Virus genome (UHGV): UHGV-1451962
From: a virus
Length of the DNA: 64,000 nucleotides
Reading direction: 5' to 3' (one strand)
In this document: positions 30,095 to 50,306 of the stretch, piece after piece
Position numbering within the stretch: the stretch's first letter is position 1
How the letters are laid out: each line of letters begins with the position of its first letter
The notes under the pieces: model-generated
The model's database searches: none
Told to the model about the DNA's origin: nothing
Seen by the model: the letters and a program-made list of their open reading frames with translations, nothing else
Position numbers and translations under genes: made by a program

Positions 30095-30133
30095 GGGGGG
30101 AAGGGGATTTTCCCTTCTTCCCTTTATTTTTTT
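30095..30133 (+). terminator. rho-independent terminator after the capsid gene
   Basis: 'ggggaaggggattttcccttcttccc' hairpin followed by 'tttatttttttg'. Confidence 0.5.
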
Positions 30134-30153
30134 GAGAAAAAGGAGAATTTATA

Positions 30154-30711: not shown

Positions 30712-30731
30712 ATATAAAGGAGGACATTATT

Positions 30732-31524: not shown

Positions 31525-32482
31525 TTTAAAATTAATGCACAAACGTCTTGAGTATTTTGGTGGGTTAAAACAAGAAGATAGAATGATAAATGATAAGTAT
31601 AGAGCTTTCTTAAAAAGTTTATTATATTCTTATCAAGGTTGTAATGTAGAATTAGTTCAAAGATATACAGATTGCTTTGAACTAGAAGAGATTCAACCGC
31701 AATATAGAGCTTTGATTAATCCTGATAAATTAAAACAAGACTATGATGATAAAGTTCTTTCTATTGATTATAAATATAATTATGATTTAGGAGATATTTT
31801 TAAGTGGGTTGGCACTGATACTAATTGGATTATTTATTTAAGAGCCTTAACAGAGGATGCTTATTTTAGAGGTGAAATTAGGCTTTGTCGCCATAAAATA
31901 AAATTTAAGGATGAAAAAGGAAATATTTGTTCTACTTGGGCGGCGATCAGAGGCCCTGTAGAAACACAAATTGAGTCTATCCAAAAAGGACAAGTTCGAA
32001 TTGATAAACCAAATTTAAGTTTAAATATTTTATTACCTAAAAATGAACAAACTTTATTTGCTTTTGATAGATATTCAGAATTTTTATTTGCTGGAAAATG
32101 CTGGCAAGTACAAGCCCCAGATTCGATTTCAATGAAGAATATTATTGAAGTTAATGCCGAAGAATATTATATTAATAAGGAAACAGATGATAAAATAGAA
32201 GAAATTAAAAATGGTTTAGTTATAGAGCCTGTTGATCCTTCTCCTGATACAACTATAAAGGGAGAAACTTTTATTAAGCCTAATATTGCTGAAATATATG
32301 AAGCCCCAGATGTGGGAGGAAAATGGAAAGTTGTTGAAAATTATCCAGTTTGTTTAATTCCTATTGATGATTTGCGGGTTAAAGTGATTTGGCAAAAATC
32401 GGTTAGTGGACAATTTACTTTAGAATGGTATAAAGACCATATTGTAGAAACAAAAACAATAGTGGTAGAATCATTATTCTAA
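31517..32482 (+). CDS. hypothetical structural protein
   Basis: 321 aa, coupled start. Confidence 0.4.
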   Translation: MNNLKLMHKRLEYFGGLKQEDRMINDKYRAFLKSLLYSYQGCNVELVQRYTDCFELEEIQPQYRALINPDKLKQDYDDKVLSIDYKYNYDLGDIFKWVGTDTNWIIYLRALTEDAYFRGEIRLCRHKIKFKDEKGNICSTWAAIRGPVETQIESIQKGQVRIDKPNLSLNILLPKNEQTLFAFDRYSEFLFAGKCWQVQAPDSISMKNIIEVNAEEYYINKETDDKIEEIKNGLVIEPVDPSPDTTIKGETFIKPNIAEIYEAPDVGGKWKVVENYPVCLIPIDDLRVKVIWQKSVSGQFTLEWYKDHIVETKTIVVESLF

Positions 32483-32501
32483 AGTTAAAGGAGAAAAAGG
32501 A

Positions 32502-33038
32502 ATGAAAAAAAATTTATATGAATTTCCAAAGTCTAGTTTTTTGGGTATGGCCAAAGATACAGCTTTGATTATAAATAAAATTTTAACCAATAAAAATATT
32601 TTAAAATTAATTTATTATACTTCTAAAGATTGGAAAGATAAACCTGATTTAAATAGTCAACAAATAAAAGAATTATTTGAAAATAAACAAATATCTAATA
32701 TACCTAAGATTACTGTTTTTCCAGATAAAGCTACTTATCTGAGAATTAGTTATGATGATTTTGTTCCGAATGATACTAATCCTTATTATAGAAATCATAT
32801 GATAGATATTAAAATTATTTGCCATTATGATTCATGGGATTTAGGAGATTTTGAGTTAAGACCTTATCGCATAGCTGGGGAGTTAGATTCTATTTTAGAT
32901 GGACAACATTTAACTGGAATTGGAGAATTACAGTTTCTTAGTGCAGAACAAATTCTCATAGATAATGAATTTGCAGGAATTAATTTAAGATATTGGGCCG
33001 TTAGAGGTAATGAAGATAAGGTTAATCCTTTGAATTAA
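32502..33038 (+). CDS. hypothetical structural protein
   Basis: 178 aa, RBS 'aaaggagaaaaagg'. Confidence 0.4.
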   Translation: MKKNLYEFPKSSFLGMAKDTALIINKILTNKNILKLIYYTSKDWKDKPDLNSQQIKELFENKQISNIPKITVFPDKATYLRISYDDFVPNDTNPYYRNHMIDIKIICHYDSWDLGDFELRPYRIAGELDSILDGQHLTGIGELQFLSAEQILIDNEFAGINLRYWAVRGNEDKVNPLN

Positions 33039-33039
33039 T

Positions 33040-33774
33040 ATGGATATTAAATTAGCATTAATGGCAGGTGTAGATATTCCTATACCTGAGTTACAAGCAA
33101 TTATTCATCAACCGCAATTAAAAGAAATTGCGAGGATGGGTGAACAAAATTTTTTTATGGCAATTCATTATTTATGTTTAAATAAAGAAGCTTTGTTAGA
33201 GGACGAAAGTCTTTTACAGAGTTTAACAAATTTTCAAGTATTGATGAAAGTTATTGAACAATCAGAAGATGCTGAGAAGAAAATAGCTTTAATAACTTTA
33301 CTTTCTCTTTTGTTTCCAGGATTTAAACCAATAATTACTCCAAAGAGCATTATTCTTAATAATTTGCAAACAAAACAAAGCATTTTGATAGATGATAATA
33401 ATTATGTTTTTTTACAAGAAATATTAAAACAAATGTTTTGTATAAGTAGTATTTTTCAGGGAGATAATGTTGTTTATAATCCTGCGAATGAAGCTGCAAA
33501 AAAAATTGCCGATAAATTAATGAAAGGCAGAAAAAGAGTTGCAGAATTAAAGGGAAAAAATCAAGAAAGCGTGTTAAGCAGATATGTTTCTATTTTAACG
33601 ATAGGGATTTCCTCTATGTCTTTAGAAAATTGTCTGGCTTTAACAATATATCAACTATTTGATTTAGTTGAAAGATATAATCTGTTTATTGAATGGGATT
33701 TAAATTTGCGGGTTAAACTTGCAGGTGGAGACCCCAAGCAAGATGCGGAAAATTGGATGAAAAACATTCATTAA
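33040..33774 (+). CDS. hypothetical structural protein
   Basis: 244 aa. Confidence 0.4.
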   Translation: MDIKLALMAGVDIPIPELQAIIHQPQLKEIARMGEQNFFMAIHYLCLNKEALLEDESLLQSLTNFQVLMKVIEQSEDAEKKIALITLLSLLFPGFKPIITPKSIILNNLQTKQSILIDDNNYVFLQEILKQMFCISSIFQGDNVVYNPANEAAKKIADKLMKGRKRVAELKGKNQESVLSRYVSILTIGISSMSLENCLALTIYQLFDLVERYNLFIEWDLNLRVKLAGGDPKQDAENWMKNIH

Positions 33775-33795
33775 TTTATAAGGAGGAAATTAAAC

Positions 33796-34737
33796 ATGAG
33801 ATTTGGTGTACGCGAAATCTGTGATGTTGTGTTGCGTGCTAAAGCAAGACAAACTCTAGGTACTCGTACTTTTTATAAGAATGAGCCTGTTCTTTATTTT
33901 GATACTTTAAAGACTTCTAGCCTAGAAGGTCAAGCTACCACAGTTTATGCTCAAGGCGGACGTGGTAACTCTAGATTAATTGCCTGGGAAGGCGAGAAGA
34001 CTCTTACATTTACAATGGAAGATGCACTGCTTTCTCCTGAAAGTTTTGCAATTCTTTCCGGTGCTGGTTTGATGGATGCTTCTGCGGAAGCCCCTATTTA
34101 TGTTCATACTACTTCTCAAGTGCAGGTTGATGCTCAAGGCAAGTTTACTGTGGATGGTAAAATTTGTTGGAATGGCGGTCGTGCACAAGAAGGAAATAAA
34201 GAAGGAACAAATTATGACTACCATAAAGAAGCAGATGTTTTCTGCATGGCTCTTGATGATGCTGGAGAGGTTAAAGTCGAGCCTTGTGTTCCTGCTTCCA
34301 TGACTTATGATGATACTAAGAAGAAAACTACTATTGTTTGTTATGCTGATGCTGAAGGTGTTGAGAAATTAGCTGAAGGTTCTGTTGTTCTTGTTGATTA
34401 TTATGTTAAGAAGATCGGCAATGCTAAGATGATTGAGATTACTCCTGATGAATTTGCTGGTAGTTATTACCTAGAAGGTTCTACTTTATTCCGTAGAGAG
34501 TCCGATGGTGTTGACATGCCTGCTGAGTTCATCATTCCTAATGGTAAGATTCAGTCTAACTTTACTTTCTCTATGGCAAGTTCTGGCGATCCTTCTACCT
34601 TTACCTTTACTATGGATGCTTTCCCTGGATATACTAAGTTTGATCCTACTAAAAAGGTTCTTGCTGCTATTCAGGTAATTGAAGATAGCACTGGTGAAGA
34701 TACCGCTTACCGCGAGAATTGTAAGGCGACTTTTTAA
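33796..34737 (+). CDS. major tail protein candidate (possibly C-terminally extended by frameshift)
   Basis: 313 aa, strong RBS 'aaggagga'; stop codon lies in a 'tttttaa' context followed by a start-less in-frame(-1) ORF. Confidence 0.4.
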   Translation: MRFGVREICDVVLRAKARQTLGTRTFYKNEPVLYFDTLKTSSLEGQATTVYAQGGRGNSRLIAWEGEKTLTFTMEDALLSPESFAILSGAGLMDASAEAPIYVHTTSQVQVDAQGKFTVDGKICWNGGRAQEGNKEGTNYDYHKEADVFCMALDDAGEVKVEPCVPASMTYDDTKKKTTIVCYADAEGVEKLAEGSVVLVDYYVKKIGNAKMIEITPDEFAGSYYLEGSTLFRRESDGVDMPAEFIIPNGKIQSNFTFSMASSGDPSTFTFTMDAFPGYTKFDPTKKVLAAIQVIEDSTGEDTAYRENCKATF

Positions 34738-35126
34738 TTACCCCAAATAGTAACGTTAAAATTAGTCAGCTAGGGAATACCTATTCTTTAGTTGGCACTG
34801 TAGATAAAACTGATATTCCCGTAGAATATCAAGGGCTATTTGGGGATATAGCAACAGAAGATACTTTAAATAAGTATGTGCTTGTTAGATTAAATAATAT
34901 TATTCCTAAAAATGGTGCTACTATTATTCAAAAGAATGAAGCTTTAAAATATTATTATAATAAAGGTGATGTTAATATCACTGAAGTTGGTGGCATTTAT
35001 ACCAAGACTAAGGAATATGATGGAACTGATTCTGATTATGCTTTGTTAATTAAGATTGGTTCTACTGCGGAAGTTACTATTAATGATACTAAATATATTA
35101 TTGATGGTTCTAAATTAACTAATTAA
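34725..35126 (+). CDS. start-less ORF in the -1 frame: candidate frameshift extension of 33796..34737
   Basis: -1 frame is open from 34725 to 35126 with no ATG or RBS; the ORF-track version (34878) needs a GTG start without RBS. Confidence 0.35.
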   Translation, partial: GDFLITPNSNVKISQLGNTYSLVGTVDKTDIPVEYQGLFGDIATEDTLNKYVLVRLNNIIPKNGATIIQKNEALKYYYNKGDVNITEVGGIYTKTKEYDGTDSDYALLIKIGSTAEVTINDTKYIIDGSKLTN

Positions 35127-35131
35127 TAAAA

Positions 35132-35169
35132 ATAGGGAAGAGTTTTACTCTTCCCTATTTTTTGTTTTA
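35132..35169 (+). terminator. rho-independent terminator
   Basis: stem atagggaagag/ctcttccctat, loop tttt, then 'ttttttgtttt'. Confidence 0.55.
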
Positions 35170-35179
35170 AGGAGAAAAT

Positions 35180-36586
35180 ATGAGTAGTGATTTTGTTTTT
35201 GAATATGATGGAACTAGTTATCCTAATATTCATAGTAAACCTGAACATTATATAGGAGGAACTTTAATTCCTTATGCTCAAACAACAAATAAAATGGCAG
35301 CTATCAAAACAAGATACTTAAATATGATGAAAGCGCAACTCGCCAGCCAACAAACAGATGCTAAAAAGAAAGCTTTTATAGAAGGTATGGAATTAGCAAA
35401 ATTTGAAAAAATGGAAAAACAAATAGAAAATAAAATTGTTGAAGAATATAATAAAGCTGCGAGCAAATTAGGAGGAAATATTGGTGGATATAATATGGGA
35501 GTTGATGGATATGTTGCAGCTTTAAAATCAGGAGATAAAGATGGAGCAATAAAATCATTAGCTCAAATAATAGCTGTTTTTCACCAAAATAAAGATGCTG
35601 TTGCTTTATATGAAATGTTAAAAGATAATCCTCAACAAATTTATTCTGATATTTCTATAAACGAATTAATTAATGTTCAAGCTTTTATGAAAGTTATTGA
35701 AGCTGCTATGAATGGAGAAAATTATCGGAATACTCTAAATTCAATTTTAACTAAACCTTCAGAAGCTTTAGCAGCTTTAATAGGAACATATGCTGAAGCA
35801 AAAAGTGATACAGAAGTAAAAGATTTATTACTTGGTACTCAATCACAAAATATTAGAGTAAGTTTTAGTGGAGAATTTAAAGAAATTCAATCTAAATCCG
35901 CGGATATTAGTTTAGGAAATTCATATTTTTCTTATAATATGGGTGGTTCACAAGGCAGTCAAGGTATTGAGCTTTATGACACTTTTGATGTAGAAACTTT
36001 TGCTACTGTAAAGACTTATAGAACCGCGGGAGGTTTGTCTTTAACAAGTTATTCTGGAAAAAATTCTTTCTTAATTCCAGCTTTACATCAATTGTATGGT
36101 GGTGGAAACTCAATTGATTATCAAATATATAATACTTTAGCTTTTAGTGCAGGGCAAGAATCAGGAGCATTGGATACTAACTTTAGAATTATTCGGCAGG
36201 ATTTAATTGCTAAATTTGCGGAAAACTTTTTAATTGGTTTTAATACGGCTGAAGCACAAAGAGTATTAGTATATAATTTTAGAGCATATCCAGTATTAAC
36301 TATATTAGCTGATATAGTTAATGATGCTAAAAATGCGGTTAGAGAAGGAAATTTATATGGTTCTTTAAGTAGTGGTGATTTATTTAGTATTTCTTTGACT
36401 AAAAGTGCTGTTGATAATAGTTGGGTTGGTCAAAAAGATATAACAAATAAAGCAAATAAAGCTGTTCGTGTAAAAAGAGCTTATAATCAAATTAATAGTA
36501 TTGCAATGCAAGGTCATATTAGTGGTAGATATGTTAGTTCTAATTTAAGAAAATATTTAACAGCGGCGAATGGAATACCTATTTAA
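35180..36586 (+). CDS. hypothetical tail protein
   Basis: 468 aa, RBS 'aaggagaaaat'. Confidence 0.4.
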   Translation: MSSDFVFEYDGTSYPNIHSKPEHYIGGTLIPYAQTTNKMAAIKTRYLNMMKAQLASQQTDAKKKAFIEGMELAKFEKMEKQIENKIVEEYNKAASKLGGNIGGYNMGVDGYVAALKSGDKDGAIKSLAQIIAVFHQNKDAVALYEMLKDNPQQIYSDISINELINVQAFMKVIEAAMNGENYRNTLNSILTKPSEALAALIGTYAEAKSDTEVKDLLLGTQSQNIRVSFSGEFKEIQSKSADISLGNSYFSYNMGGSQGSQGIELYDTFDVETFATVKTYRTAGGLSLTSYSGKNSFLIPALHQLYGGGNSIDYQIYNTLAFSAGQESGALDTNFRIIRQDLIAKFAENFLIGFNTAEAQRVLVYNFRAYPVLTILADIVNDAKNAVREGNLYGSLSSGDLFSISLTKSAVDNSWVGQKDITNKANKAVRVKRAYNQINSIAMQGHISGRYVSSNLRKYLTAANGIPI

Positions 36587-36650
36587 AATTTGCTTTTTTG
36601 TTAAATAAGTAGTATAATAAAAATAGAAATGATAAAAAGGAGATTTAAAA

Positions 36651-37199
36651 ATGTCTAAAGTTACTTTTAGTAAAATAAATATGAAAATGAAGATGAAAGA
36701 TGAATATGCGACTATTTATCTTAATCCAGAACTTGATGAGGAATTTAAAGTAGAAGTGCGTCAATATTTACCAATTGAGCAAAAGGCAGCTTTAATTACT
36801 TTTATTGCAGAAAACGCGATTGATGAAAAGACTGGTTGCTTTAGTGAAATTAGAATTGAGACTTATTTTGCTCTTGCTATTGCTAAGTATTATGCAGGAA
36901 TTGCTTTTACTGACAAGCAAATTGAAAATGCTGCTAAAATTTATGATGTATTAGAGAGTAATGGAGTTTTTACTAGAATTATGAGTGCTATTCCTGAATC
37001 TGAGTTTAACTTTTTAACTAATGCCGTTAGTAAAACTATTGCCGATATTGCAAGATTTAATAATTCTTTTGCCGGAATGTTGAATATGATCTCTGATAAT
37101 GCGGGCGGCATGGATGAACAGTTTACTGAAATTTTAGAGAAGATTAAGAATGGTGAAGGTTTAGAGACTCTTTCTGAAATTAAGAATATTGTTGGCTAA
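36651..37199 (+). CDS. tail assembly chaperone candidate
   Basis: 182-aa acidic protein directly upstream of the tape-measure gene. Confidence 0.35.
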   Translation: MSKVTFSKINMKMKMKDEYATIYLNPELDEEFKVEVRQYLPIEQKAALITFIAENAIDEKTGCFSEIRIETYFALAIAKYYAGIAFTDKQIENAAKIYDVLESNGVFTRIMSAIPESEFNFLTNAVSKTIADIARFNNSFAGMLNMISDNAGGMDEQFTEILEKIKNGEGLETLSEIKNIVG

Positions 37200-37250
37200 A
37201 TTAAGATAATATATTTCTAATAAATATTAAAATTTTATAGAGAATTTTTT

Positions 37251-37316: not shown

Positions 37317-40300
37317 ATGGCTAAAAGACTTAATTATGAAGTAGGCTTTACTGGCGATACTTCACAATTAAAAGCGTCTTTAAATGATGCTGTAAAAGCT
37401 TTACAAAAATTAGGTACTTCTTCAACTACTCAAATGACTCAGGGTATGCGGGAAGCATCTAAATCTGCATTAGAATTAGCTAATAATTTAAAAACTGCTA
37501 CTAATCAAGAAACAGGAAAATTAGATTTAGTAACTTTTAATAGAAATTTAGCTAATAGTAAGATGACCATTAGTGATTATGCTAAGCAATTATCTCAATT
37601 AGGCCCTACTGGTCAGCAAGCTTTTATGAAAGTTGCGCAAGCAGTTACTTCTGCGGAATTACCAATGAGACGTACTAATAAAGTATTGGATGAATTGTGG
37701 ACAACAATGAAAAATACTGCTCGTTGGCAATTAACCTCAAGTGCGTTGCATGGATTTATGGGAGCTTTAAATACTTGTGTTGGATATTCTAAAGCTTTAG
37801 ATAAATCTTTAAATTCTATCAGAATTGTTACTGAACAATCAGCTGAACAAATGGCTGATTTTGCAGTTCAAGCTAATAGTGCTGCAAAAAATTTAAGTAC
37901 AACAACAACAGATTATACGGATGCAGCATTGATATATTATCAACAAGGTTTAAATGACAAAGAAGTTCTTGATAGAACTGATATTACTATTAAAATGGCC
38001 AATGCCGCAAATGAAAGTGCTCAAGTAGTTTCTGACCAATTAACTGCGGTTTGGAATAACTTTTATGATGGTTCACAATCATTAGAGCATTATGCTGATG
38101 CGATGGTGGCGTTAGGTGCTGCTACTGCTTCTAGTTCAGATGAAATTGCTGGCGGCTTAGAGAAGTTTGCATCAATCGCAGACATGATTGGGTTAAGCTT
38201 TGATTATGCTGCTTCTGCTTTAGCAACAATTACTGCTACAACTCGTCAAAGCGAAGATGTTGTTGGTACTGCTTTGAAAACTATTTTTGCTCGTATTCAA
38301 GGTTTGAATTTAGGAGAGACCCTTGAAGATGGCACTGATTTAAATAAATATTCAGAAGCTTTGAGCAAAGTTGGTGTTTCAATTAAAGATTCTAATGGCG
38401 ATTTGCGTAATATGGATGCTATCTTAGATGATATAGGCGCAAAATGGGGTACTTTAACAAAAGACCAACAAGTAGCATTAGCGCAAACAGTAGCCGGCGT
38501 TCGTCAATACAACCAGTTAGTTTCTTTAATGGATAATTGGGATTTCTTTGAAGATAATTTAAAGATTGCCCAAAATTCTGAAGGTGAATTAAATAAGCAG
38601 GCTGATATTTATGCAGAATCTTGGGAGGCCGCGAGAAAAAGAGTTAAAGCTGCGGCAGAAGATATTTATGATAGCATTTTGAATCCTGAGAGCATTGTTG
38701 CTATTGATGATGTTTTAACTCCATTTTTAAGTGGAATAGCGCAAGTTGTTAATGCTTTAGGTGGATTAAAAGGTATTGCTTTAGTTGTTGGTTCTGTCCT
38801 TACTTCTGTTTATAGTGGTAAATTGGTAAATGGTTTACAAAATTTTGCTACTAATATTCAGATTATGACTGGACTTCAAGGAAAATTAACAAGAAGCTTA
38901 CAAGAACAAACCGTAACTGAAGCAGAAAATCTTGATATTATAATTGGTGGTAATCGTGCTTTAGAAACTGAAATTTCTTTGATGCGAGAAAAAGTTCAGT
39001 TACAAGGTATGATTAATAAATATACCAAGAATTATGACCAAAGTCAAATGTTACAAGTCAATCAGCGAGTAGGCGTTATTGATGCTTTGCGTCAACAAAT
39101 TATGGCTTCTGCTCAAAAACAAACTGCTTTGTTGGGTGAAGCTGAAGAATTTAAAACAACTATATTGTTAGATATAGAGCCAAAACCTGGTTGGGAAGAA
39201 AGATTTAGACAGAAAATTTTACAATTTAATACTAATATGGTTAATGGGCCATTAAAAAATCTTAATTCTGTCTTTTTATTTGATGAAAAAGATGATATAA
39301 CAAGAACTACTGAAAAAGTTACAGCAAGTATGCAAAAGTTAGCTTCTCAAGCTAGTTCTATAGAAGCAGTAAGACGAGCTTATAGCAATTTAAATATAGA
39401 TCAAAAAGAAAGTGCCGTTGTTTTACAAGAATTAATTCAAAAGACTGGTTTATGGAAAGCAGAAATGCAAAATTGGTCTACTCCTAAATTACAAGAATTT
39501 TTGAATAACTTAGGTACTCAATCAATAGAAGCTTCTAAAGGGATGCAACTTTTAAAACAAGCTTTAATGGAATTAAGTTATTCTCCTGAAGCTATTGATC
39601 AATTTATTAATTCGATAAGAAGATTAGCCGCTGAAGAACATAGTGCCGCAGAATATACAAGATTAATTAATGAAGAAATAAAAAAATTTACGAACAGTTT
39701 GCAAACTGGTAGTATTCAAAGTGAATCGGGTTGGGCAAAAACTGTTGTAAGCATGTCTAATCATCTTATGAATTTCGGAATGACTCTTTCCGCAGTTAGT
39801 AATATGGGTAAAGTTTTCAAAGAATCTATGGAAGGAAATATTACTGCGGGAGAAGCTTTCATTCAAATTATGACTAATTTGGGTATGATTTTGATGAGTG
39901 GCAGTAGCCTTTTCATGGCTTTGTCAAAATCAATGGGTGCTCTTGTTTCAGTTTATACTGGTGTAAATACTTCAGTAGCAGCTCTTACTTTTGTTACAAA
40001 ATTAAATACTGCGGCTGAAGAAGGAAATATAGCTGCAAAAATAGCTAATGTTGCAATTACAAAATTGCTTACTGTTTCAGAAGGTAGTTTAGCTGCTGCT
40101 ATGGGTATAACTATTGGCGTTTTAGCTCTTTTTGCGGCTGGAATTGTGTTTGCTGTAAAAATAATTGATGGTTTAATTGTAACTCAAAAAGAAGCCAGTC
40201 AAGCTATTGCGGATGCTACTCAAAATTATACTGATCAAAAGAGCAAATTAGATGAGTTAAATAGTTCTTTAGAGCAAACTAGACAAAAGATAGAAGAATT

Positions 40301-43300
40301 AGAATCTAAAGATTCTTTATCTCTTGTTGAACAAGATGAGCTAGCTAATTTAAAACAGCAAGAAGCTTCTTTAGAGAGACAAGCTGATCTAAGAGAGCGT
40401 ATAGTTAAAGCTAAACAAGCAGAAATGGCTTATGCTATTGCAGATAATTTTGACAAAAAATATGACAAGACTTATAAGGTAGAGCCAAAAGGTAGAACTG
40501 GTGCTGACACTTCTAATTTTAAAACACAAGAAGATTTAGATAAATGGTATAATAGTTTAAATTCTGACCAACAGGCAAAAGCATTAGACCAATATCAGAA
40601 TTGGACGCAACAGATAGCAGAAGCTACTGCTCAAATGACTTCTGAAGTAGGAGAAGATTTAGCTGAATTAGAACAAGACTATGCTAATTATTTAGGTGCT
40701 GTTGATTCTGGAGCAATTGTGGCCGATCCGTCTAAGATTGCAGATATGCAGGATAAATTAGCAGAATTAAGAAAATTAATATATCCTACTGATAATCAGT
40801 ATTATGAAATGGTTATCCGTCCGGTATTAGATGATGAATCTTTTGATGAAGTAAGAGATAAGATTTTTAGAGCTTTATCTTCTGGAGATATTAAAGGTGC
40901 TGGATTAGCCTTAACAGATGAAATGCGTTCTGCCATTGAAGCTGCTGGAATTTCTGTTGATGATTTATTTAATCAAATTGCAGAAAGAATGTCTCAGGCC
41001 AGAGAGACCATTAAATCTGAAATGGGCGGTACCGAAGAGCAATTAAATAAATTAACTGCCGAAGATTGGGATATTATTCTTACCTTGGATTTAGAAAACA
41101 TTGGTTCTTTTAGAGAATTAATGAAAGCTATTGAAAATGCTAAAAATACAGACCTTAAAGTTAAAGTAGATACTTCTGAGTTAGATGCAGCAAAAGATAA
41201 AATAGAAAGTTTAAATACTAATGAAGAGCCATTGGAAAAAGCCTTGATGTCTTATAAAGAACAAGGTTATCTTACTATGGATCAGACTTATGAATTAATT
41301 AAAGCTAACGAAGAATATGCTCAATATATTAAAAAAGTTGGAGATGAGTATGTTTTAACTACTCAATCTTTAACTGACTTTACTGAAATGGAAAAAGCTG
41401 AGAAATTGGCTTTAGACCAAGCTATTGAAGCTATGCAAAACAAAGGTAAAGTTGATAGAGATTATGCTCAGCAGTATGTTGATCTTTATAGTAGTTTAAT
41501 TGAAAGTAGTAAAAATTGGTCTGACCAAGAACGTGCAGATAGCGGAGAAAATTTTGATAAAAATACTGAAGCACTTAGAAGACAAGCTCAAGCGTTCCAA
41601 GAAGGAAAGATTAGCGCAAGTGAATATTTTGATGCAATAAATCAAAGAGTTAGTGAAACTGGGGATAATTTTGCAAAATTAAGTGATGGTATAGATGGTC
41701 TTAAAGAATCTGATTATGCAAAAACTATGATTTCCTCTACTACTGCTTTGGCTGATGGTTTTAAAGATTTAATCAGTGAAGTTGAAGCTGGCGGTACTAA
41801 TATGCAAGAGTATTATGCTGGTGCAGTTAAAGGTACTAAAGCTTTAATGAATATCACTGCTAAATCTAATAAATATATCACCAAAACAGCAGATGGTTAT
41901 AAAGTTGTTACTGATAATATTGATGATGCAACTAAAGCTACACAAGACTACAAAGATGCTCAGAAAAAAGTTCAAAATTTAAATACTTGGGAAAAACAAG
42001 TTGATCAAGCTGAAGGATTTAAAAAAGCAATAGATGATATTACTTCTTATTATGATTATTTAAAAAATTATTTAAATGATAATAATTGGCTTGAGTTACC
42101 TGATAATTTTGATACAACAACAACCAAATTTAAAAATATGTGCGATACTATGGCTGCTGATATTTGGTCTTTAAAAGATACAAATGCTGAAGCTTTTAGT
42201 GCGATTATGGCTCACATGGAAACTGAAAATGCTGGTTTTGATTCTAGTTTAATTACTTCTCAAAGTCAATTAGCTAGTGCTATGCAAGGAAATGCAACAA
42301 TAGCTTCTTCTGCTATTAATGGTCTAGCTGCTCAAAGTCAGATTAGTATTGGTACTTTATGTCAAATTGGTGGACAGTTATTACAATCTTTGGCAAGTGC
42401 TATTAGCAGTTTTAGTTATACTATTCAGGCGACTGGTGTTGTTGATAATCCTGGTGGTATTGGTTTAGGCGGAGGATTAGTCGATAAAATTGGTGCTTTA
42501 CTTACAACAGGAGGGAAAATTCCTTTTGAATGGGATATGCCTTCTGCCCATATTGATTTAACAGGTTCTGGTTCTGGTGGTTCACCTATGTTTAGCACTA
42601 CTGGTTCTGCAAGAGCGCAAAAAGTTAATGGCTCTGGTAAATCAAATTATATTCGTTCAAAAGACACTGGTGCTGCTAGCAAAGGTGAGTCATCAGGACT
42701 TTTAGAAAATATTTCTAAATTTGGTACTGCATTAGAAGAATATGGTAAACAATCTGTATTGTCTCAAGGTTTAAAAGCATTTGCCCCTTCAGGAGGAGGA
42801 ACTGGTGGTAGAACTCTTAACCCTAGTGGTATTTCTACTGATAACAATCGTCCTTCTGGTGGAGGAGGAGGAAAAGGCAAAGGTGGTAAAGGAAAAGGCG
42901 GAGGTGGTAAAGGAAAGGGAGGAAAAGGAAAAGGCGGAGGTGGTGGCTCCGGCTCAGATGATTCTCCTGAAATCGAAGATGAAGAAATTTTTGATGATAG
43001 ATACCACGATATTAATAATAGACTAGAAGAACAAAGTCAGCTACTAGATAAGATTGATACTGCTAAAGATAGAGCTTTTGGTGTTAAGAAATTAGAAAAA
43101 TATAAAGAAAAAATTGAAGCAATTAATAAAGAACAAGAATTATATAAAGAAAAATTAAAAAAGACTGAGGAATATTTAAAAGAAGATTTAACTGATTTAC
43201 AAAAGAACTTTTCTGGTGTTAAATTAAATATAGACTCTGATAGTAAAGCTTTATTAAATTATGAAGATTTAGAAAAATGGGCAATAGAAGAATATAATAA

Positions 43301-45932
43301 AGTAGTAAGAAAATATAATGCTTTAGGTTCTAAGACCGCGCAGGAATCTTTTAAAGATACTCTTGATGCTGCAAAGAAAACACTTGATTTAAGAAAAGAA
43401 ATTCTAGAGCAGTATGAAAATGATCAAAAGCAAAGAGTTGAACTTTTAGAAAATATTGCTGAAGAGGCTAGAAAGAAATTTAATGAAAAATTAAGTAGTA
43501 TTAATGCTGTTATAGAAGTTAAATTAAAGATTAAAGATTTTAAAGATACTAATAGAGAAATAGGTAAAAATGTTGTTGAAGCTTTTGGCGATGCTGTTAA
43601 TTGGGGCAAAAAACCTGGACAAATTGATTTCTTTGGTATGCAAGATAACTTAGCTAAAGCTAAAGACTTAGAAGAACATATGAATCAAATATTTAATCTT
43701 ATGTCTGAGTCTGAAGATAGTGCTGATTTTGAAAGTGTTATAGATTCTTTAGAAGATTTACATGGTAATATTGCTGATACTGTTTCTGATTTAAAAGATT
43801 GGTTAGAAAATCTTAGAGAGTATTTAACTGATGTTATTGATGCAGCAGCTGACAGATTTGCACAATTTACTGATCAATTAGACCATAATGGTACTGTATT
43901 AGATTCAGTAAAAGAATTATTAGATTTACAAGGAATAACTTATAAAACTGGTAAGAATTTTGAACTTTTACAGAAAACTATTCAAGGAAGATTGGAAACA
44001 GCTACTTCTACTGCCAAATTACAAAAGCAATGGATGGAAAAAGCTGCGGAACAATTAGCGGAAGCAGAAAAAGCTTTGGCAGGAGTTACTGAAGAAGATG
44101 CAGCTTATGATACTCTTAAAAATAATCGTGATGCTTTATTAAAACAATTTAATGAATCTCAAGAAGCTATGTTAGATGCAGCTAAAGAAGCTATGGAAAC
44201 GGCAAGAGAGTATTATACTAATGCTATTGAGAAAGCTGCTTATGATTTTGAGCAAGCTATTAGTGGCGGAATGGGTTTAGAATTATTGCAGCAAAAATAT
44301 GATAATTTAATTAGTAAAGAAGAAAGATATTTAGATAAAGTTAATGAAACATATGAAGTAAGTAAATGGAATAGACAACTTCAAAAAGCAATAGATGAAG
44401 AAACTAATGAAGCTTCTAAGAATAGATTAAAAACATTACAAAAAGAAATTGAAGTAAGACGTGAAGGTAATAAATTATCTAAATATGATTTGGATATTTT
44501 AGAAGCAAAATATCAAATGACTCTTGCTCAAAATGCTTTGGATGAAGCTCAAAATGCTAAAAATTCAGTGCGGTTAGTCCGCAATGAATCCGGCAACTGG
44601 GATTATCAATTTACAGCTGATCAGTCTAAAATTGATGAAGCTACACAAAAGTATGAAGATGCGGCAAATAACTATTACAATATAGCAAAAGACCAAGTTA
44701 AAAATATGATGGATGAAATTCTGCGATTAAAACAAGATACTTTAGACCAAATTAAAGATGTTTATGAAGATGAAAGTTTAACTGAGGAAGAACGTGGAGA
44801 AAAGATTGCAGAAATTCGTAGAAATGCAAATGATAAAATCCTTTATATTCAGCAAGAATATCAAGTATCTTTAGAAGATATGACAGATGCAGGTGGAGAG
44901 ATAATTACAGAATATGGAAATACTTATAATGATGTAATGAAAATTATGGAAATGGGTACTTCTGACTTTACTGCATATTTTGAAACTGCTCTTGATGAAA
45001 TGGAAAATGCTGCTGATAATTACAATAGCACTATGGAAGAAGTCACTGGGACTACTGGTTCAAATGTAGATGCTTTAAAACAAATTATTGATGATACTAC
45101 CAAATCTACTCAAGATTTAACTACTGCGGGTACTCAAGCCGCAGATGCTGTTTGGAAGAAAATTGAAGAAGTTCGCCAAGCTTCAGAGCAATGGTCTAAT
45201 TATGCAGCGTGTGTACGTCAAGCATTAGATACTTTGTATGAAATGTCTAACTTTGTAACTACTAGAACAGTTGCCGCTTCTGTTGGTGATATGAAAGGGT
45301 ATAATTCTAATATTGACTATTCTTCTGTTATGAATGATTATTTAAGCCAAGGTGGACAAGTTGGAGATGAAATATTTAAGAGTTTAGAATATCAAAGATA
45401 TTTGAAAATTCTTGGAGAAAATTTTGAACAAGGTAAACAGTATATTTATTCTAATGAAGATTATTATAATAAGCAAAATGATCCAGAGTTTCAGAAATGG
45501 CTAAAAGATAATGGCGGAACTGGCAAATATGAGGATTTTGTTAAGAGTCATACAATAGGTTACGCAACAGGAGGCTATACTGGTTCTTTTGATAATGAAG
45601 ATGGTAAATTAGCATTTTTACATGAGAAAGAATTAGTTTTAAATCAAGAGGATACTGAAAATATTCTTTCTGCGGTTTCCGCGGTTAGAACATTAGGGCC
45701 TAATTTGTTTAAACAAATAGAAAGAATTTTGGATAATAATATAATGGCAGGGCAAAATTTATTAAATGCTCGTATGGCTAGTTCTACTACTGTTTCTAGT
45801 GATGGGCAAATAGTTGAACAGATAGTGCATATTCAAGCTGATTTCCCTGGTGTATCCAGTGCAGCAGAAATCGAAGCAGCTCTTAATAATATTGTTAATG
45901 ATGCGGCTCAATATGCTAGTATTAGAAAATAA
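37317..45932 (+). CDS. tail tape-measure protein candidate (2871 aa)
   Basis: very long, largely alpha-helical/coiled-coil-looking sequence with hydrophobic segments and a Gly/Lys-rich repeat; positioned after chaperone-like gene and before large tail proteins. Confidence 0.55.
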   Translation: MAKRLNYEVGFTGDTSQLKASLNDAVKALQKLGTSSTTQMTQGMREASKSALELANNLKTATNQETGKLDLVTFNRNLANSKMTISDYAKQLSQLGPTGQQAFMKVAQAVTSAELPMRRTNKVLDELWTTMKNTARWQLTSSALHGFMGALNTCVGYSKALDKSLNSIRIVTEQSAEQMADFAVQANSAAKNLSTTTTDYTDAALIYYQQGLNDKEVLDRTDITIKMANAANESAQVVSDQLTAVWNNFYDGSQSLEHYADAMVALGAATASSSDEIAGGLEKFASIADMIGLSFDYAASALATITATTRQSEDVVGTALKTIFARIQGLNLGETLEDGTDLNKYSEALSKVGVSIKDSNGDLRNMDAILDDIGAKWGTLTKDQQVALAQTVAGVRQYNQLVSLMDNWDFFEDNLKIAQNSEGELNKQADIYAESWEAARKRVKAAAEDIYDSILNPESIVAIDDVLTPFLSGIAQVVNALGGLKGIALVVGSVLTSVYSGKLVNGLQNFATNIQIMTGLQGKLTRSLQEQTVTEAENLDIIIGGNRALETEISLMREKVQLQGMINKYTKNYDQSQMLQVNQRVGVIDALRQQIMASAQKQTALLGEAEEFKTTILLDIEPKPGWEERFRQKILQFNTNMVNGPLKNLNSVFLFDEKDDITRTTEKVTASMQKLASQASSIEAVRRAYSNLNIDQKESAVVLQELIQKTGLWKAEMQNWSTPKLQEFLNNLGTQSIEASKGMQLLKQALMELSYSPEAIDQFINSIRRLAAEEHSAAEYTRLINEEIKKFTNSLQTGSIQSESGWAKTVVSMSNHLMNFGMTLSAVSNMGKVFKESMEGNITAGEAFIQIMTNLGMILMSGSSLFMALSKSMGALVSVYTGVNTSVAALTFVTKLNTAAEEGNIAAKIANVAITKLLTVSEGSLAAAMGITIGVLALFAAGIVFAVKIIDGLIVTQKEASQAIADATQNYTDQKSKLDELNSSLEQTRQKIEELESKDSLSLVEQDELANLKQQEASLERQADLRERIVKAKQAEMAYAIADNFDKKYDKTYKVEPKGRTGADTSNFKTQEDLDKWYNSLNSDQQAKALDQYQNWTQQIAEATAQMTSEVGEDLAELEQDYANYLGAVDSGAIVADPSKIADMQDKLAELRKLIYPTDNQYYEMVIRPVLDDESFDEVRDKIFRALSSGDIKGAGLALTDEMRSAIEAAGISVDDLFNQIAERMSQARETIKSEMGGTEEQLNKLTAEDWDIILTLDLENIGSFRELMKAIENAKNTDLKVKVDTSELDAAKDKIESLNTNEEPLEKALMSYKEQGYLTMDQTYELIKANEEYAQYIKKVGDEYVLTTQSLTDFTEMEKAEKLALDQAIEAMQNKGKVDRDYAQQYVDLYSSLIESSKNWSDQERADSGENFDKNTEALRRQAQAFQEGKISASEYFDAINQRVSETGDNFAKLSDGIDGLKESDYAKTMISSTTALADGFKDLISEVEAGGTNMQEYYAGAVKGTKALMNITAKSNKYITKTADGYKVVTDNIDDATKATQDYKDAQKKVQNLNTWEKQVDQAEGFKKAIDDITSYYDYLKNYLNDNNWLELPDNFDTTTTKFKNMCDTMAADIWSLKDTNAEAFSAIMAHMETENAGFDSSLITSQSQLASAMQGNATIASSAINGLAAQSQISIGTLCQIGGQLLQSLASAISSFSYTIQATGVVDNPGGIGLGGGLVDKIGALLTTGGKIPFEWDMPSAHIDLTGSGSGGSPMFSTTGSARAQKVNGSGKSNYIRSKDTGAASKGESSGLLENISKFGTALEEYGKQSVLSQGLKAFAPSGGGTGGRTLNPSGISTDNNRPSGGGGGKGKGGKGKGGGGKGKGGKGKGGGGGSGSDDSPEIEDEEIFDDRYHDINNRLEEQSQLLDKIDTAKDRAFGVKKLEKYKEKIEAINKEQELYKEKLKKTEEYLKEDLTDLQKNFSGVKLNIDSDSKALLNYEDLEKWAIEEYNKVVRKYNALGSKTAQESFKDTLDAAKKTLDLRKEILEQYENDQKQRVELLENIAEEARKKFNEKLSSINAVIEVKLKIKDFKDTNREIGKNVVEAFGDAVNWGKKPGQIDFFGMQDNLAKAKDLEEHMNQIFNLMSESEDSADFESVIDSLEDLHGNIADTVSDLKDWLENLREYLTDVIDAAADRFAQFTDQLDHNGTVLDSVKELLDLQGITYKTGKNFELLQKTIQGRLETATSTAKLQKQWMEKAAEQLAEAEKALAGVTEEDAAYDTLKNNRDALLKQFNESQEAMLDAAKEAMETAREYYTNAIEKAAYDFEQAISGGMGLELLQQKYDNLISKEERYLDKVNETYEVSKWNRQLQKAIDEETNEASKNRLKTLQKEIEVRREGNKLSKYDLDILEAKYQMTLAQNALDEAQNAKNSVRLVRNESGNWDYQFTADQSKIDEATQKYEDAANNYYNIAKDQVKNMMDEILRLKQDTLDQIKDVYEDESLTEEERGEKIAEIRRNANDKILYIQQEYQVSLEDMTDAGGEIITEYGNTYNDVMKIMEMGTSDFTAYFETALDEMENAADNYNSTMEEVTGTTGSNVDALKQIIDDTTKSTQDLTTAGTQAADAVWKKIEEVRQASEQWSNYAACVRQALDTLYEMSNFVTTRTVAASVGDMKGYNSNIDYSSVMNDYLSQGGQVGDEIFKSLEYQRYLKILGENFEQGKQYIYSNEDYYNKQNDPEFQKWLKDNGGTGKYEDFVKSHTIGYATGGYTGSFDNEDGKLAFLHEKELVLNQEDTENILSAVSAVRTLGPNLFKQIERILDNNIMAGQNLLNARMASSTTVSSDGQIVEQIVHIQADFPGVSSAAEIEAALNNIVNDAAQYASIRK

Positions 45933-45986: not shown

Positions 45987-48900
45987 ATGAATAATATATC
46001 AGAGCAAATTCTTCAAGCAGCTGATATTTTAGCGCAAAAAAGATTATCCGAATTAAAATATGATATAACAGTTCAAGGCACTGTTGAGTCTTTAGTTAAT
46101 TTAAATACTGGTGAATATAAAGTTAAATATAATGGTAATATATTTTCTGCTTTTAGTAATGATTTAAAAACTACTTATAGAATTGGAGATAATATTTATA
46201 TAAAAATTCCAGAAGGAGATTTTTCTAATAAAAAATTAATTGAAAATAAAGTTACTGATAAGTCTTTAACTGAAAATAATTTAAATGAGCTAGAAAATTC
46301 TGTTTCTCCTGTTGGGCCTACTTTTGATGTTTTTTATAATTATGACAAAATAAAAGAATATGGGGTAGTTGCAGGAGCACCCAAAGATGATAAATTGTCT
46401 ATTACAGAGATTTTCAACAGAGAAACTGTAAGTAATTTTTCCGATATTCCTTTTTTACAATATGCTAATAAATATGAATATATTAAAATTCAGGCCGATT
46501 TTTTAACACTCTTTAGTGATATTCATTCTGAGGGAAATTATGGCTTAGAATTGGCATTTTCATCTAATGGAGAAGATGTTTTTTATAGACTTGATGTTTC
46601 AAATTTTAATGGTAGTCCTTATTCTTTTAATACTTATAGCACGCAATCAGTTACTGTAAAAATACAAACAAAATTTTTAACTGGTTTAAAAAGTATTAAG
46701 TTATTTGAAGAAGGATTTCAATACGATAAATATTTATCTAATGGTGAATATATTTATTTAGATAAAGCAACAGGCAAAGAATTAATACATGATAATGAAA
46801 CCAATGAATATTATTATTTAAATGATAATAATGAAAAAATAATTGTAAATCAAGAGAATAGAATAGAAAAAATAAATGATAAATCACCGAATATTTTTGT
46901 TAAAAATATTCAAGTACAGTATGTAGAAGTAAAAAATTTAATAGACAATCTATATTATTTAAGAATTAAAACACCTAATGGTCAAATGTTTACAGACCAA
47001 ATAGATGAAATTACTTTACAAGGACAATTAATTTACAATGGCAATTCAGTTTTAACAGAAAAGAATAGTACCTGTTATTGGTATGAAAGAGATTATTCTG
47101 TGATGATAGGTGATGAGGCCTATGATAAAAATGTTGGTTTTGGATGGCGACCAATTTCCGCAAATTTTGATACTCTTGTTTTAAAAGATGAAGATGTGGT
47201 ATATAAAAAAGTATTAAAATTAATGGTAGTTTATTCTGATAATGTTGTAATGTCTGAAGAGATAGTTATTAGTAATTATAATACTGATTATAATTGTTGG
47301 CTAGAGCAATTAACTGTTGGAGATACTATTGATTTACATATTAAAAATAATAGAGATGAAGATGAATTAGTCGGTGATTGGTATTTATCTTTACCTGATG
47401 GAAGTTATCAAGAGGTACCTAATGGTAAACAAAAATCTGAAATAGAAGTTAAGCAATATCTTTTATATTCTGCTGTAACTTTTTATTGTAGTATTTATGA
47501 TAAAGATAGAAAAAATATTATTGCCACTGAAGAATATACAATCACTAATACTGAATCACAAGAAGATTTAAGTATAAAGTATATTGGAGAAGATTCTTTT
47601 AGATATGATTCTAATGGTGATATTACTATTGAGGATTCTGAAAAAGAACGTACTATTGAATGTCAATTTGCCTGGAAAGATGGAGTCGGCACTTCTTATG
47701 ATATGACATGGTATAGTCCAGATGGGAGTTTATTAACAACAGGTGAAAGAGTTAATCCTGTTGATTCAATGATAGAAAATCTCTGGGTTGACAAATATAA
47801 TATTTTGCATTATACTATTAAACAGAAGTATAAAATAAATTTTAACAATAATACTATTCAAATTAAAGTTACTACTTTAGACCAAAAGGAATATATTTTT
47901 AATAAAGAAATTCTTTTTGTTAAAGATGGTGATCAAGGTACTAATGGTACTACTTATATCGCAGCTATTCGTCCTTGTGATGATAATGGTATTAAATTAA
48001 GTGGTTTACAGCCTTTGGTTTTTAATCCTTTAACCAAAGAGCTTTTAGATGAACAAGAAAGGATTAGAAATGATAATACTCTTTCTAATGAAGAAAAAAT
48101 AAAACAAATTTTAGAAGTTAGAAAAAGAGGATGGAATACTTTAAAGTTAAGAGTGTATGTTTATAAAGATGGAGAATTAATCAATAATTTAAATGGTAAT
48201 AAATATACTATTAAATATGAATGGTCTGGGACAAATATAAAATTACCTGAAGCAGAAACTGATGATGAATATATTAGCATTTCCGGCAATAGTGATCCAG
48301 TTATAAACTTTTATTCTACTTCTGATAAATATGAATTTTATATAAAAATTAAAATAACTGTTAGAGAAAAAGCAGGAGATTCTACTGTTTATCTTTATTC
48401 TATTTATCCTATTGATGTTGCAGTTAATGGTTTTGAATATAATAGAGTTGACATAAATGAAATTCCTTCTTATATTAAATATAATTCTTCTGGTTTAAAT
48501 CCTTCTTTTTATAGTAATGCTTTAAAATATACTTTTGATGAAATAGATCAAACTAAATTAGTAGAATCATTAAATAAAGATATTTTAGTAATTGAAGATA
48601 AACAACAAAAGGAATCTGAAATTATAGATAGATATTTAGTACCTTCTTCTAATTTTATTTTTGAAAGAGATTCAGATAAAAATAATAGTAGTATTGGTAT
48701 TTTAAAATGCCCCGACCCGCAATATAATACTAGATATTTATTACACTCTATTGTTATGTATCTTGATACATATGGCAATGAAGCTATTAATGGCTGGGAT
48801 GGAACACAGTTAGATATAGATAACAAAGGCCAATATGTTTTTGCCCCGCAGGTTGGTGCAGGTACTAAAAATGAACAAAATCAATTTACCGGCGTTGTTA

Positions 48901-50306
48901 TGGGTAAAGATAGCGGGCAGAAAAAAATTGGTTTATATGGTTATCAAAATGGTATTACTACTTTTGGTTTAATGCAAGATGGTTCTGCATTTTTTGGTGC
49001 TTCTACTAGCGGAAGAATTAATATTGATGGAACAAAAGCAAATATTTATGGCGGTTTAACAGAAAATGGCGCAAATAGTATGAAATTAACTTTATCTGAT
49101 ATGCGGATGACTGGTAGTACAAAAGCTATTAATATTAATGATTCAAAAGGTGAATCTGCTTTTTATGTAACTTATAATGGTTATATGTATGCTAATAATG
49201 TTAAAATAAAAGGTAATGTTGAAGCAACCACTTTAACAGCAACTAAAAGCGGCAAGATAGCTGATTTTACTATTGATTCAACTGGATTAAGAGGAGGTTC
49301 AATTACTTGTAGAAATTTAGTTGCTAACACTGATGGAGAAATTGCTGGTTGGAAAATTACTGGGCAAAGTTTAAAAAGTCCTAACGCTTCAGTAAATCAG
49401 CCTTCTGAGGCGGGAGGAGTGCCAACTTGGACAGGCACTACTTTAAATAGTAGTGGACAAATTTATACTCAGAAATTATATGCAAGTGGTGGAGATATTG
49501 GTGGCTGGCAGATTAATTCTACTAATTTATACGGAAGTGCTGAAGGAAAATTTCAAAGTATTACTTATGATGATGAAGGTAATATGAGTGTATCTGAAAT
49601 AACAGGTATTAAATTTACTGAATTACAAAAAGGCGGCCAGATTAAAACCAATACAGTACAAATTTTTAGTGATCCACAAGCTGAAGGACAAATAGGGAAT
49701 TATATTGGATATATGGGTCTTGTCTACGGAAGCACTACCAGTAAAGATACTACATATAACATAGGTATATATAGTCTTACTGGTGCTCGTCTTGAAGCTA
49801 AAGGAGATATAGCAATAGCCGCAGGAAAAGGTAGTATTTGGATGCATGGTAATATAATGGCGAGAAAAGGTTTTTATTGTGGAAATAGTTCTAATATTGA
49901 TAATTTAGATAAAAAATTTCTTGTTGAAAATAGAATTATTAGACTGGGTGCAGAGACAGATGCTGACCAATTGTATATTAGAAGTTCTTGGTTAGTTTTA
50001 AAAGATGATGGAATGTCTATTAAAAAGCCTACAACAATTACAAAAGATGTAACAATTTCTGCTAATCAAAAATTAAGTTTGTCTGGAAATGGTTATATTT
50101 CAACTCCAACTATACAGACTGATAAAATTCAACCAGTGGGTAAAGAGACTGGTACAATAACAGTGAGTGGAACTATGAGCGGTAGTTTTAAGGGTAGTCT
50201 TTCTACATCAAGTGGTTATTATTATAATAGTAGTGGAGCTTACACAAAACTTTTAGCAGGTAGTATAATAGATGATAGTATTAAAGTTTTTGCTAAATTT
50301 TCGTGA
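45987..50306 (+). CDS. large tail/baseplate protein (1439 aa)
   Basis: follows the tape-measure gene; beta-rich repeats such as 'GWKITGQSLKSP' and 'GWQINSTNLYGS'. Confidence 0.45.
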   Translation: MNNISEQILQAADILAQKRLSELKYDITVQGTVESLVNLNTGEYKVKYNGNIFSAFSNDLKTTYRIGDNIYIKIPEGDFSNKKLIENKVTDKSLTENNLNELENSVSPVGPTFDVFYNYDKIKEYGVVAGAPKDDKLSITEIFNRETVSNFSDIPFLQYANKYEYIKIQADFLTLFSDIHSEGNYGLELAFSSNGEDVFYRLDVSNFNGSPYSFNTYSTQSVTVKIQTKFLTGLKSIKLFEEGFQYDKYLSNGEYIYLDKATGKELIHDNETNEYYYLNDNNEKIIVNQENRIEKINDKSPNIFVKNIQVQYVEVKNLIDNLYYLRIKTPNGQMFTDQIDEITLQGQLIYNGNSVLTEKNSTCYWYERDYSVMIGDEAYDKNVGFGWRPISANFDTLVLKDEDVVYKKVLKLMVVYSDNVVMSEEIVISNYNTDYNCWLEQLTVGDTIDLHIKNNRDEDELVGDWYLSLPDGSYQEVPNGKQKSEIEVKQYLLYSAVTFYCSIYDKDRKNIIATEEYTITNTESQEDLSIKYIGEDSFRYDSNGDITIEDSEKERTIECQFAWKDGVGTSYDMTWYSPDGSLLTTGERVNPVDSMIENLWVDKYNILHYTIKQKYKINFNNNTIQIKVTTLDQKEYIFNKEILFVKDGDQGTNGTTYIAAIRPCDDNGIKLSGLQPLVFNPLTKELLDEQERIRNDNTLSNEEKIKQILEVRKRGWNTLKLRVYVYKDGELINNLNGNKYTIKYEWSGTNIKLPEAETDDEYISISGNSDPVINFYSTSDKYEFYIKIKITVREKAGDSTVYLYSIYPIDVAVNGFEYNRVDINEIPSYIKYNSSGLNPSFYSNALKYTFDEIDQTKLVESLNKDILVIEDKQQKESEIIDRYLVPSSNFIFERDSDKNNSSIGILKCPDPQYNTRYLLHSIVMYLDTYGNEAINGWDGTQLDIDNKGQYVFAPQVGAGTKNEQNQFTGVVMGKDSGQKKIGLYGYQNGITTFGLMQDGSAFFGASTSGRINIDGTKANIYGGLTENGANSMKLTLSDMRMTGSTKAININDSKGESAFYVTYNGYMYANNVKIKGNVEATTLTATKSGKIADFTIDSTGLRGGSITCRNLVANTDGEIAGWKITGQSLKSPNASVNQPSEAGGVPTWTGTTLNSSGQIYTQKLYASGGDIGGWQINSTNLYGSAEGKFQSITYDDEGNMSVSEITGIKFTELQKGGQIKTNTVQIFSDPQAEGQIGNYIGYMGLVYGSTTSKDTTYNIGIYSLTGARLEAKGDIAIAAGKGSIWMHGNIMARKGFYCGNSSNIDNLDKKFLVENRIIRLGAETDADQLYIRSSWLVLKDDGMSIKKPTTITKDVTISANQKLSLSGNGYISTPTIQTDKIQPVGKETGTITVSGTMSGSFKGSLSTSSGYYYNSSGAYTKLLAGSIIDDSIKVFAKFS

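Follow-up and report, generated by a model that had tools for sequence, protein, structure and literature searches.

A glycine/lysine-rich tract of recurrently changing length at a conserved junction in a giant phage tail tape measure protein

The tape measure gene and its glycine/lysine tract

The window, by which we mean the whole 64-kb stretch of DNA analyzed here, derives from an uncultured siphophage of ∼137 kb. Its plus strand carries a single long open reading frame (ORF) at 37317..45932 that encodes a protein of 2871 aa. Residues 188 to 394 (37878..38498, plus strand) match the PhageMin_Tail domain PF10145 (hmmscan E value of 1.5e-27; 97.2 bits versus a cutoff of 33.2), and the ORF also matches ten PHROG families whose annotation is tail length tape measure protein (best E value, 2e-64). 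By sequence homology, the product is a TP901/PhageMin_Tail-type tail tape measure protein, in agreement with an earlier note on this DNA that had placed a low-complexity repeat inside a tape measure-like protein. The identical protein is already present in public collections, on contigs of ∼137 kb, and carries the name “TP901 family phage tail tape measure protein” in one source. Hydrophobic windows lie at aa 477 to 498 and aa 920 to 957, and its C-terminal ending is common to family members.

In a 90%-identical relative, precomputed Pfam annotations upstream of the tape measure gene comprise the YonD_N, YonB, YomW, YomV_2nd, YomU_Tube, and YomO families. The gene order is the same in the window and in this relative, with the tape measure gene placed after tail-tube-type genes, and the window ORF at 33796-34737 matches phrog_2729, a virion structural protein. 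As these families take their names from Bacillus SPbeta proteins, the tail module is classed by homology as SPbeta type. Searches of GenBank phages returned no match, either by megablast with positions 41500-44500 or by tblastn with aa 1701 to 2200, and a scan of IMG/VR with the segment just 3′ of the tract gave 12 pattern matches, 0 of which were confirmed. Distant relatives were found on ∼148-kb contigs binned into Clostridia MAGs (labelled Oscillospiraceae and Eubacterium); as a clue to the host, this binning is only a weak hint. L010-L012, which are distant homologues of the junction module described below, read TAG as a sense codon. The phAss-1 group of TAG-recoding human-gut phages has tape measure proteins of 3149 to 3209 aa (PMC10607447). 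Going by that published description, the phage of the window resembles the phAss-1 group and the SPbeta-type tail module in genome size (∼133 to 149 kb), in its very long tape measure protein, and in its putatively Clostridia-associated hosts. Unlike that group, it has no in-frame TAG in its tape measure gene.

The tract under study, GGGGGKGKGGKGKGGGGKGKGGKGKGGGGGSGS, is encoded at 42858-42956 on the plus strand and comprises 33 residues (aa 1848 to 1880) with a net charge of +8. The amino acid string quoted in the earlier note is an exact match to these residues of ORF 37317..45932(+), and the Gly/Lys-rich repeat that it located within 42840-42960 corresponds to the exact bounds given here. 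A near-tandem DNA repeat was said to encode the tract, and Tandem Repeats Finder indeed reports an imperfect repeat at 42864-42944 (period of 36, 2.2 copies, 86% matches, score of 120), with nested periods of 21 (2.3 copies), 9, and 6. The longest exact repeat within the tract is a 21-mer, AAAGGAAAAGGCGGAGGTGGT, which occurs as two direct copies on the plus strand (42888..42908 and 42924..42944). The tract DNA is 56% GC and 83% purine; the whole window is 32% GC.

At the protein level, the tract contains an uninterrupted run of 30 G/K residues; overall, the protein has 6.7% G and 7.8% K. Given this composition, the log10 P for a 30-residue G/K run is approximately −25 per site. Across all six frames of the 64-kb window, there is no other run of at least 10 residues drawn from G, K, and S. 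GGGGG is found at both ends of the tract, and these ends qualify as polyX (at least 4 identical residues in 6). The G/K tract is a genuine feature, far above chance expectation. It is contained in a poorly conserved, indel-rich region that is rich in G, S, P, N, and T (aa ∼1745 to 1890; 42549..42986, plus strand). These five residues make up at least 50% of each 30-aa window across aa 1690 to 1893, and a comparison of 9 close sequences placed 8 of 11 indel sites, as well as the lowest identity, in the aa ∼1745 to 1890 region.

Repeats can be misassembled, and the earlier note had raised the possibility that this one was collapsed in assembly. The gene is identical (0 mismatches over 8616 nt) in a 137-kb ENA scaffold and in a Logan contig, and JGI data include the same protein as well; the matching sequences differ as assemblies, and the biological sample behind them may be shared. 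A tract of 99 nt with a longest exact repeat of 21 nt is well inside short-read resolution. Because independent assemblies are identical and the longest exact repeat is this short, collapse is unsupported, and an assembly artefact was rejected. A signal from overlapping features was weighed along with it. An 81-aa ORF in the +1 frame (42781-43026) overlaps the tract, and 6 of the 32 plus-strand GGAGG motifs of the window fall within it, which could suggest internal translation starts. However, the +1-frame ORF is a low-complexity E/K/V reading that stays open because the T-poor tract cannot encode stops, and it was rejected as a real gene. Internal ribosome-binding sites were likewise rejected, since the GGAGG motifs are a by-product of GGA-GGN glycine codons and are followed by no in-frame start codon. 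There is thus hardly any chance that the tract or its length is an artefact of assembly or of overlapping reading frames and starts.

Tract length among close relatives

An initial protein search retrieved 8 close homologues at 88 to 97% identity together with a large clade at ∼39% identity. Adding cluster members to the first 8 gave a close set of 43 relatives with at least 88% identity that cover the tract; sampling was limited to intact called proteins, which out-of-frame alleles would escape. Within this set, 12 tract alleles of 15 to 33 residues were found, each built essentially from a G/S leader, one to four copies of KGKGG, and a GGGGGSGS trailer. Alleles of 25 or 26 residues predominate (29/43), and the 33-residue allele of the window is both the longest and unique among the 43 relatives. 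The number of lysines in the tract ranges from 2 to 8 among these near-identical phages, and G-to-S, K-to-N, and G-to-D substitutions are also present among the alleles. The clade at ∼39% identity is polymorphic at the same site (e.g., KGSGGKKGKGGGGGG versus its 9-residue duplication).

Changes in tract length were found to be recurrent. Alignment of 39 full-length sequences showed 9 length states for the tract, versus 2 to 4 at each other indel site. Fitch parsimony was applied to a simple neighbor-joining tree of the same 39 sequences, built with the tract region left out. The tract required at least 15 length changes on this tree (minimum possible, 8), compared with 1 to 2 changes for the two indels outside the low-complexity region, although recombination could inflate the apparent homoplasy. 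The 30-residue allele is present in three separate clades, and tract lengths 5 or 15 residues apart occur in proteins that otherwise diverge by 0.7%. The suggestion of the earlier note that the repeat could vary in length between isolates is thus borne out among these relatives; the invariant length that, according to the same note, would make the tract just a conserved linker was not observed in the comparison of homologues.

Codon-level comparison of the alleles at nine loci revealed that they differ by whole codons or blocks, namely, one GGA, an AAA-GGN pair, the five codons of KGKGG, or a seven-codon block. Short direct repeats flank each of these blocks. The allele of the window equals the common P0006-type three-unit allele plus one additional copy of the 21-mer. 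The first of the two copies is the extra one that makes the window allele the longest; the second is found in the P0002-type allele, and the P0006 and P0004 types carry it with a single synonymous change. Every observed difference between alleles is a multiple of 3 nt, leaving the protein intact. A phase-variable (contingency) repeat switch was rejected, as all alleles in this sample of intact called proteins are in frame.

Synonymous differences among GGA, GGT, GGC, and GGG are frequent between alleles, and the encoded residues stay G and K. From this pattern, we infer that the composition of the tract is under purifying selection but that its length is not, with changes in length being nearly neutral. 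The coding DNA, in which GGN and AAA codons form a purine-rich array containing short direct repeats, would be a suitable substrate for slippage, and blocks may be repeatedly gained and lost in frame because of this makeup. Replication slippage or unequal recombination would add or remove blocks of 1, 2, 5, or 7 codons, and the sequence pattern is what either process should produce; slippage is the probable cause of the length changes in our preferred reading.

A conserved glycine-rich junction

The sequences on either side of the tract are recognizable well beyond the close relatives. Upstream, the motif TLNPSGISTDNNR (42813..42851, plus strand) is conserved between the close clade and the clade at ∼39% identity, and the family consensus for this flank is G-[VT]-L-[DN]-P...[ST]-D-N-[IN]-[RK]. 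Directly 3′ of the basic tract lies an acidic patch, DDSPEIEDEEIFD (42957..42995, plus strand), and the first 20 residues after the tract have a net charge of −9. An equivalent charged spacer occurs in distant relatives, many of which display polyG, then a K-rich stretch, and then an acidic spacer. The patch is followed by DRYHDIN (42996..43016, plus strand), the start of a long predicted helix. In a 13-sequence family alignment, the columns D235, R236, Y237, H238, I240, and N241 are invariant, and this motif served as the anchor for family-wide analysis.

When 1.84 billion representative proteins were searched with a profile, 728 relatives of the junction segment were retrieved, mostly tape measure proteins of ∼2400 to 4757 aa. 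Junction statistics were computed for 147 representatives (50% identity clusters) anchored on DRYH, using the 50 aa upstream. A 12-aa window with at least 6 Gly was present upstream of the motif in 60% of the 147 proteins, compared to 0.9% of background windows. Over the 50 upstream residues, enrichment relative to background was seen for Gly (18.6% versus 5.8%), Lys (14.2% versus 6.8%), Ser (12.2% versus 7.0%), and Pro (3.9% versus 1.0%). Lysine is not universal at the junction, the linker being acidic and poor in G in L010 and of the G/S type in L012.

The distance from the junction to the C terminus has a median of 1024 aa among 116 long family members (10 to 90% range, 949 to 1076). The C-terminal module after the junction, roughly constant in length across the family, is 978 aa in the window (42996..45929, plus strand). 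The N-terminal part ranges from ∼1650 to ∼3760 aa across the family. Shorter family members (1100 to 1850 aa), which lack the canonical N terminus, were left out as evidence; these may be fragments that arose when gene calling broke off at recoded TAG codons. As judged from these sequence comparisons, a large family of giant tape measure proteins has retained a Gly-rich tract at the junction.

AlphaFold2 was run on aa 1660 to 2060 with the 13-sequence alignment and yielded a model of low confidence throughout (mean pLDDT of 41, pTM of 0.23). In this low-confidence model, no secondary structure was predicted over segment residues 181 to 231, within which the tract occupies residues 189 to 221, and pLDDT values were ∼30 to 34 across the tract and 23 to 35 over the aa ∼1745 to 1890 region, most of which was predicted to be unstructured. 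Long helices were predicted, at the same low confidence, from segment residue 232 onward (FDDRYH), the first of them being H232-261. The predicted lack of structure is weak evidence, compatible with a helix-breaking linker. Sequence searches of solved structures found no match to the junction alignment or to the C-terminal 991 aa.

Interpretation of the tract and its junction

Our preferred reading, held with moderate confidence, is that the tract serves the conserved junction as a flexible hinge, with its composition selected and its length drifting by slippage. Its makeup and the lack of predicted secondary structure are what point to disorder and to a hinge role. Such a hinge would be intrinsically flexible and helix breaking, and it would part a variable-length N-terminal two-thirds of the protein from a ∼1000-residue C-terminal module that starts with the DRYHxIN helix. 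Selection would retain its position and its composition (rich in Gly, accompanied by Lys or Ser, and with an acidic patch after it) while leaving the exact length free. The “flexible linker” of the earlier note is therefore apt as far as probable flexibility goes, but the tract seems to be more than an incidental linker, as the junction is family conserved. That a Gly-rich tract has been strongly conserved at a set distance from the C terminus suggests a role more specific than that of a passive spacer. Because lysine is interleaved in this clade and absent from L010 and L012, it is hard to assign a role to the positive charge.

A tape measure protein accounts for ∼0.15 nm of tail per residue, and each tube ring for ∼4 nm. 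The range of 18 residues among alleles amounts to ∼0.6% of 2871 aa. With the textbook per-residue figure, this range would correspond to ∼3 to 6 nm on a predicted tail of roughly 400 nm; therefore, the functional effect of the length changes is probably negligible. This estimate bears on whether the changes could represent adaptive fine-tuning of tail length, an idea proposed for polyX tracts in tape measure proteins (PMC13585406) and one that fits the status of the tract as the most length-variable site of the protein. The 18-residue range, however, probably spans no more than about one tube ring by textbook values, a single pair of length classes dominates, and alleles switch to and fro among near-identical phages without pattern, resembling mutational noise. 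We regard such tuning as very unlikely. In TP901-1, the tape measure repeats are tens of residues long and act as a helical ruler, with measurable effects on tail length when they are changed (PMC5099701). Like these repeats, the tract gains and loses units in frame within a tape measure gene, but its units are only 1 to 7 codons, in what appears to be a nonhelical linker, and the expected effect on length is negligible. About as improbable is an electrostatic element formed by the +8 tract and the −9 patch that adjoins it. The ∼2-fold enrichment of K upstream of the motif is family wide, and the order of polyG, K-rich stretch, and acidic spacer in many relatives would also suit this idea, but some relatives have G/S or acidic linkers without lysine, and so wide a spread in lysine number among near-identical phages is hard to reconcile with a charge-dependent function. 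Possible contacts of an electrostatic element on ejection include the leading DNA end, the tail-tube lumen, anionic cell-wall polymers, and the membrane.

Somewhat less improbable, although still unlikely in our judgment, is that the junction is a site of proteolytic maturation, at which a postassembly cut would yield N- and C-terminal fragments of ∼1850 aa and ∼990 aa. Precedents exist at Gly-rich sites. Lambda gpH is cleaved in a Gly-rich region near its C terminus to give gpH*, freeing a ∼14-kDa peptide (PMC12617516), and Tal of TP901-1 and Tuc2009 has a Gly-rich autoprocessing motif, NGGGNSGGGD, the processing of which was shown experimentally (PMC11409707). As in gpH, the tract is a Gly-rich segment of a siphophage tape measure protein ahead of a C-terminal portion; unlike in gpH, it lies ∼990 residues from the C terminus. 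The likeness is one of composition and placement, and cleavage here is hypothetical. As in Tal, which comes from phages of Gram-positive bacteria, a tail protein has a Gly-rich motif where domains join, but Tal is a tail-associated lysin rather than a tape measure protein, and processing is again hypothetical in the present case. The constant position of the junction, ∼1000 aa from the C terminus in proteins of ∼2400 to 4757 aa, would fit processing, and an exposed, unstructured K-G-rich segment of the kind that the AlphaFold2 model suggests would be accessible to proteases. Against this, a Pfam scan of the tape measure protein found no protease domain, lysine is absent at the site in L010 and L012, and the tolerance of 15 to 33 residues and of G-to-S, K-to-N, and G-to-D substitutions indicates that no precise cleavage motif is conserved.

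Read as a flexible hinge, the tract belongs to an already described class, the flexible low-complexity hinges of tape measure proteins, and is in this respect ordinary. A survey found homorepeats in 95.5% of tape measure proteins, with polyG, one of the most frequent types, accounting for ∼13% of these, and proposed that such polyX tracts are flexible, slippage-prone hinges; within-species diversity in tract length was raised there as a possibility only (PMC13585406; Moreno-Rodriguez et al., J Gen Virol 2026). The tract resembles the surveyed polyX in being a Gly-rich, low-complexity stretch of a tape measure protein that qualifies as polyX. It differs in being a mixed G/K oligopeptide repeat of KGKGG units rather than a pure homorepeat and in being tied to a conserved junction instead of lying at an arbitrary site. 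It also goes beyond the survey in that length diversity is observed directly, as 12 alleles with homoplasy.

What is new here is the recurrent length change among near-identical phages, together with the observation that the junction occupies a conserved place throughout a family of giant tape measure proteins. The former provides a well-sampled case of what the survey only suggested and carries little weight by itself. Tract length may be of use as a strain-level marker for this gut-associated phage lineage. It also calls for caution, in that small differences in tape measure gene length here would reflect linker noise and not a different tail length.

A broader proposition, which we consider unlikely, is that the junction is a functional boundary (either a processing site or an obligatory hinge) in hundreds of giant tape measure proteins, which would then be two-part proteins. 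If so, an expandable N-terminal “ruler” of ∼1650 to 3760 aa would be joined to a constant C-terminal module of ∼1000 aa, with the G/K tract marking the division, and the C-terminal module would have a role of its own, such as tail-tip anchoring or channel formation on ejection. A junction held ∼1000 residues from the C terminus in proteins of ∼2400 to 4757 aa offers a modest lead on how very long tails may be built.

Sequence variation and overlapping motifs in the low-complexity region

Just upstream of the Gly/Lys repeat tract (42858-42956, + strand), the tape measure protein contains a variable segment of ∼50 residues (42600-42770; amino acids ∼1760-1815). Among relatives at least 88% identical, this segment occurs in three unrelated versions. 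Their distribution is discordant with the tree: the tape measure proteins P0133 and P0125, though they belong to the same clade as that of the window, carry the other types. Because the segment versions do not track the tree, they indicate recombination or mosaicism inside the low-complexity region.

Of the 32 Shine-Dalgarno-like GGAGG motifs that the 64-kb window has on its + strand, 6 fall within the 99-nt tract. This cluster (42861-42940) arises because glycine is coded as GGA-GGN. An 81-aa ORF (42781-43026) that lies +1 to the tape measure frame overlaps the tract. This ORF stays open solely because the tract, being rich in purines and poor in T, leaves no room for stop codons; its translation is low-complexity E/K/V sequence.

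The tape measure N-terminus and neighboring genes

The tape measure protein as called in some close relatives is ∼240 aa shorter at its N-terminus (P0008, P0160, and P0162; 2,624 to 2,630 aa). At L009, the locus encoding P0008, the shortened gene is preceded by an ORF with HNH_3/NUMOD homing-endonuclease domains (L009:1-1000). This arrangement suggests that, in the phages with the shortened call, a homing endonuclease or intron interrupts the tape measure gene.

The head and tail module (25000-37200) is of the Bacillus SPbeta type, as judged via L001, the locus of a 90%-identical relative, whose genes match the precomputed Pfam families YonD_N, YonB, YomW, YomV_2nd, YomU_Tube, and YomO; scanning with a Pfam set that does not include these models gave no hits. 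No Pfam or PHROG match was retrieved for the 1,439-aa ORF directly downstream of the tape measure gene (45987-50306) or for the 468-aa ORF (35180-36586) that precedes the chaperone-like gene, the Pfam set scanned being one without SPbeta-named models.

TAG codons in the window and in distant homologues

Within the window, TAG terminates 0 of the 55 ORFs checked (at least 100 aa), which end instead in TAA (n = 44) or TGA (n = 11). Reading TAG as a sense codon yields no ORF fusions in the window, and ARAGORN predicted no tRNA or tmRNA genes across its full length (1-64000). Distant homologues sharing the tape measure junction module (L010:1-13032, L011:1-12510, and L012:1-9482) have 48 to 84 TAG codons in frame with the tape measure gene. 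Homologues of this type lie on ∼148-kb contigs binned in Clostridia metagenome-assembled genomes. Because the in-frame TAGs align to Gln in relatives, the alignments indicate that these distant phages recode TAG to Gln. Such recoding resembles the TAG-to-Gln recoding of the phAss-1 gut phage group (PMC10607447).
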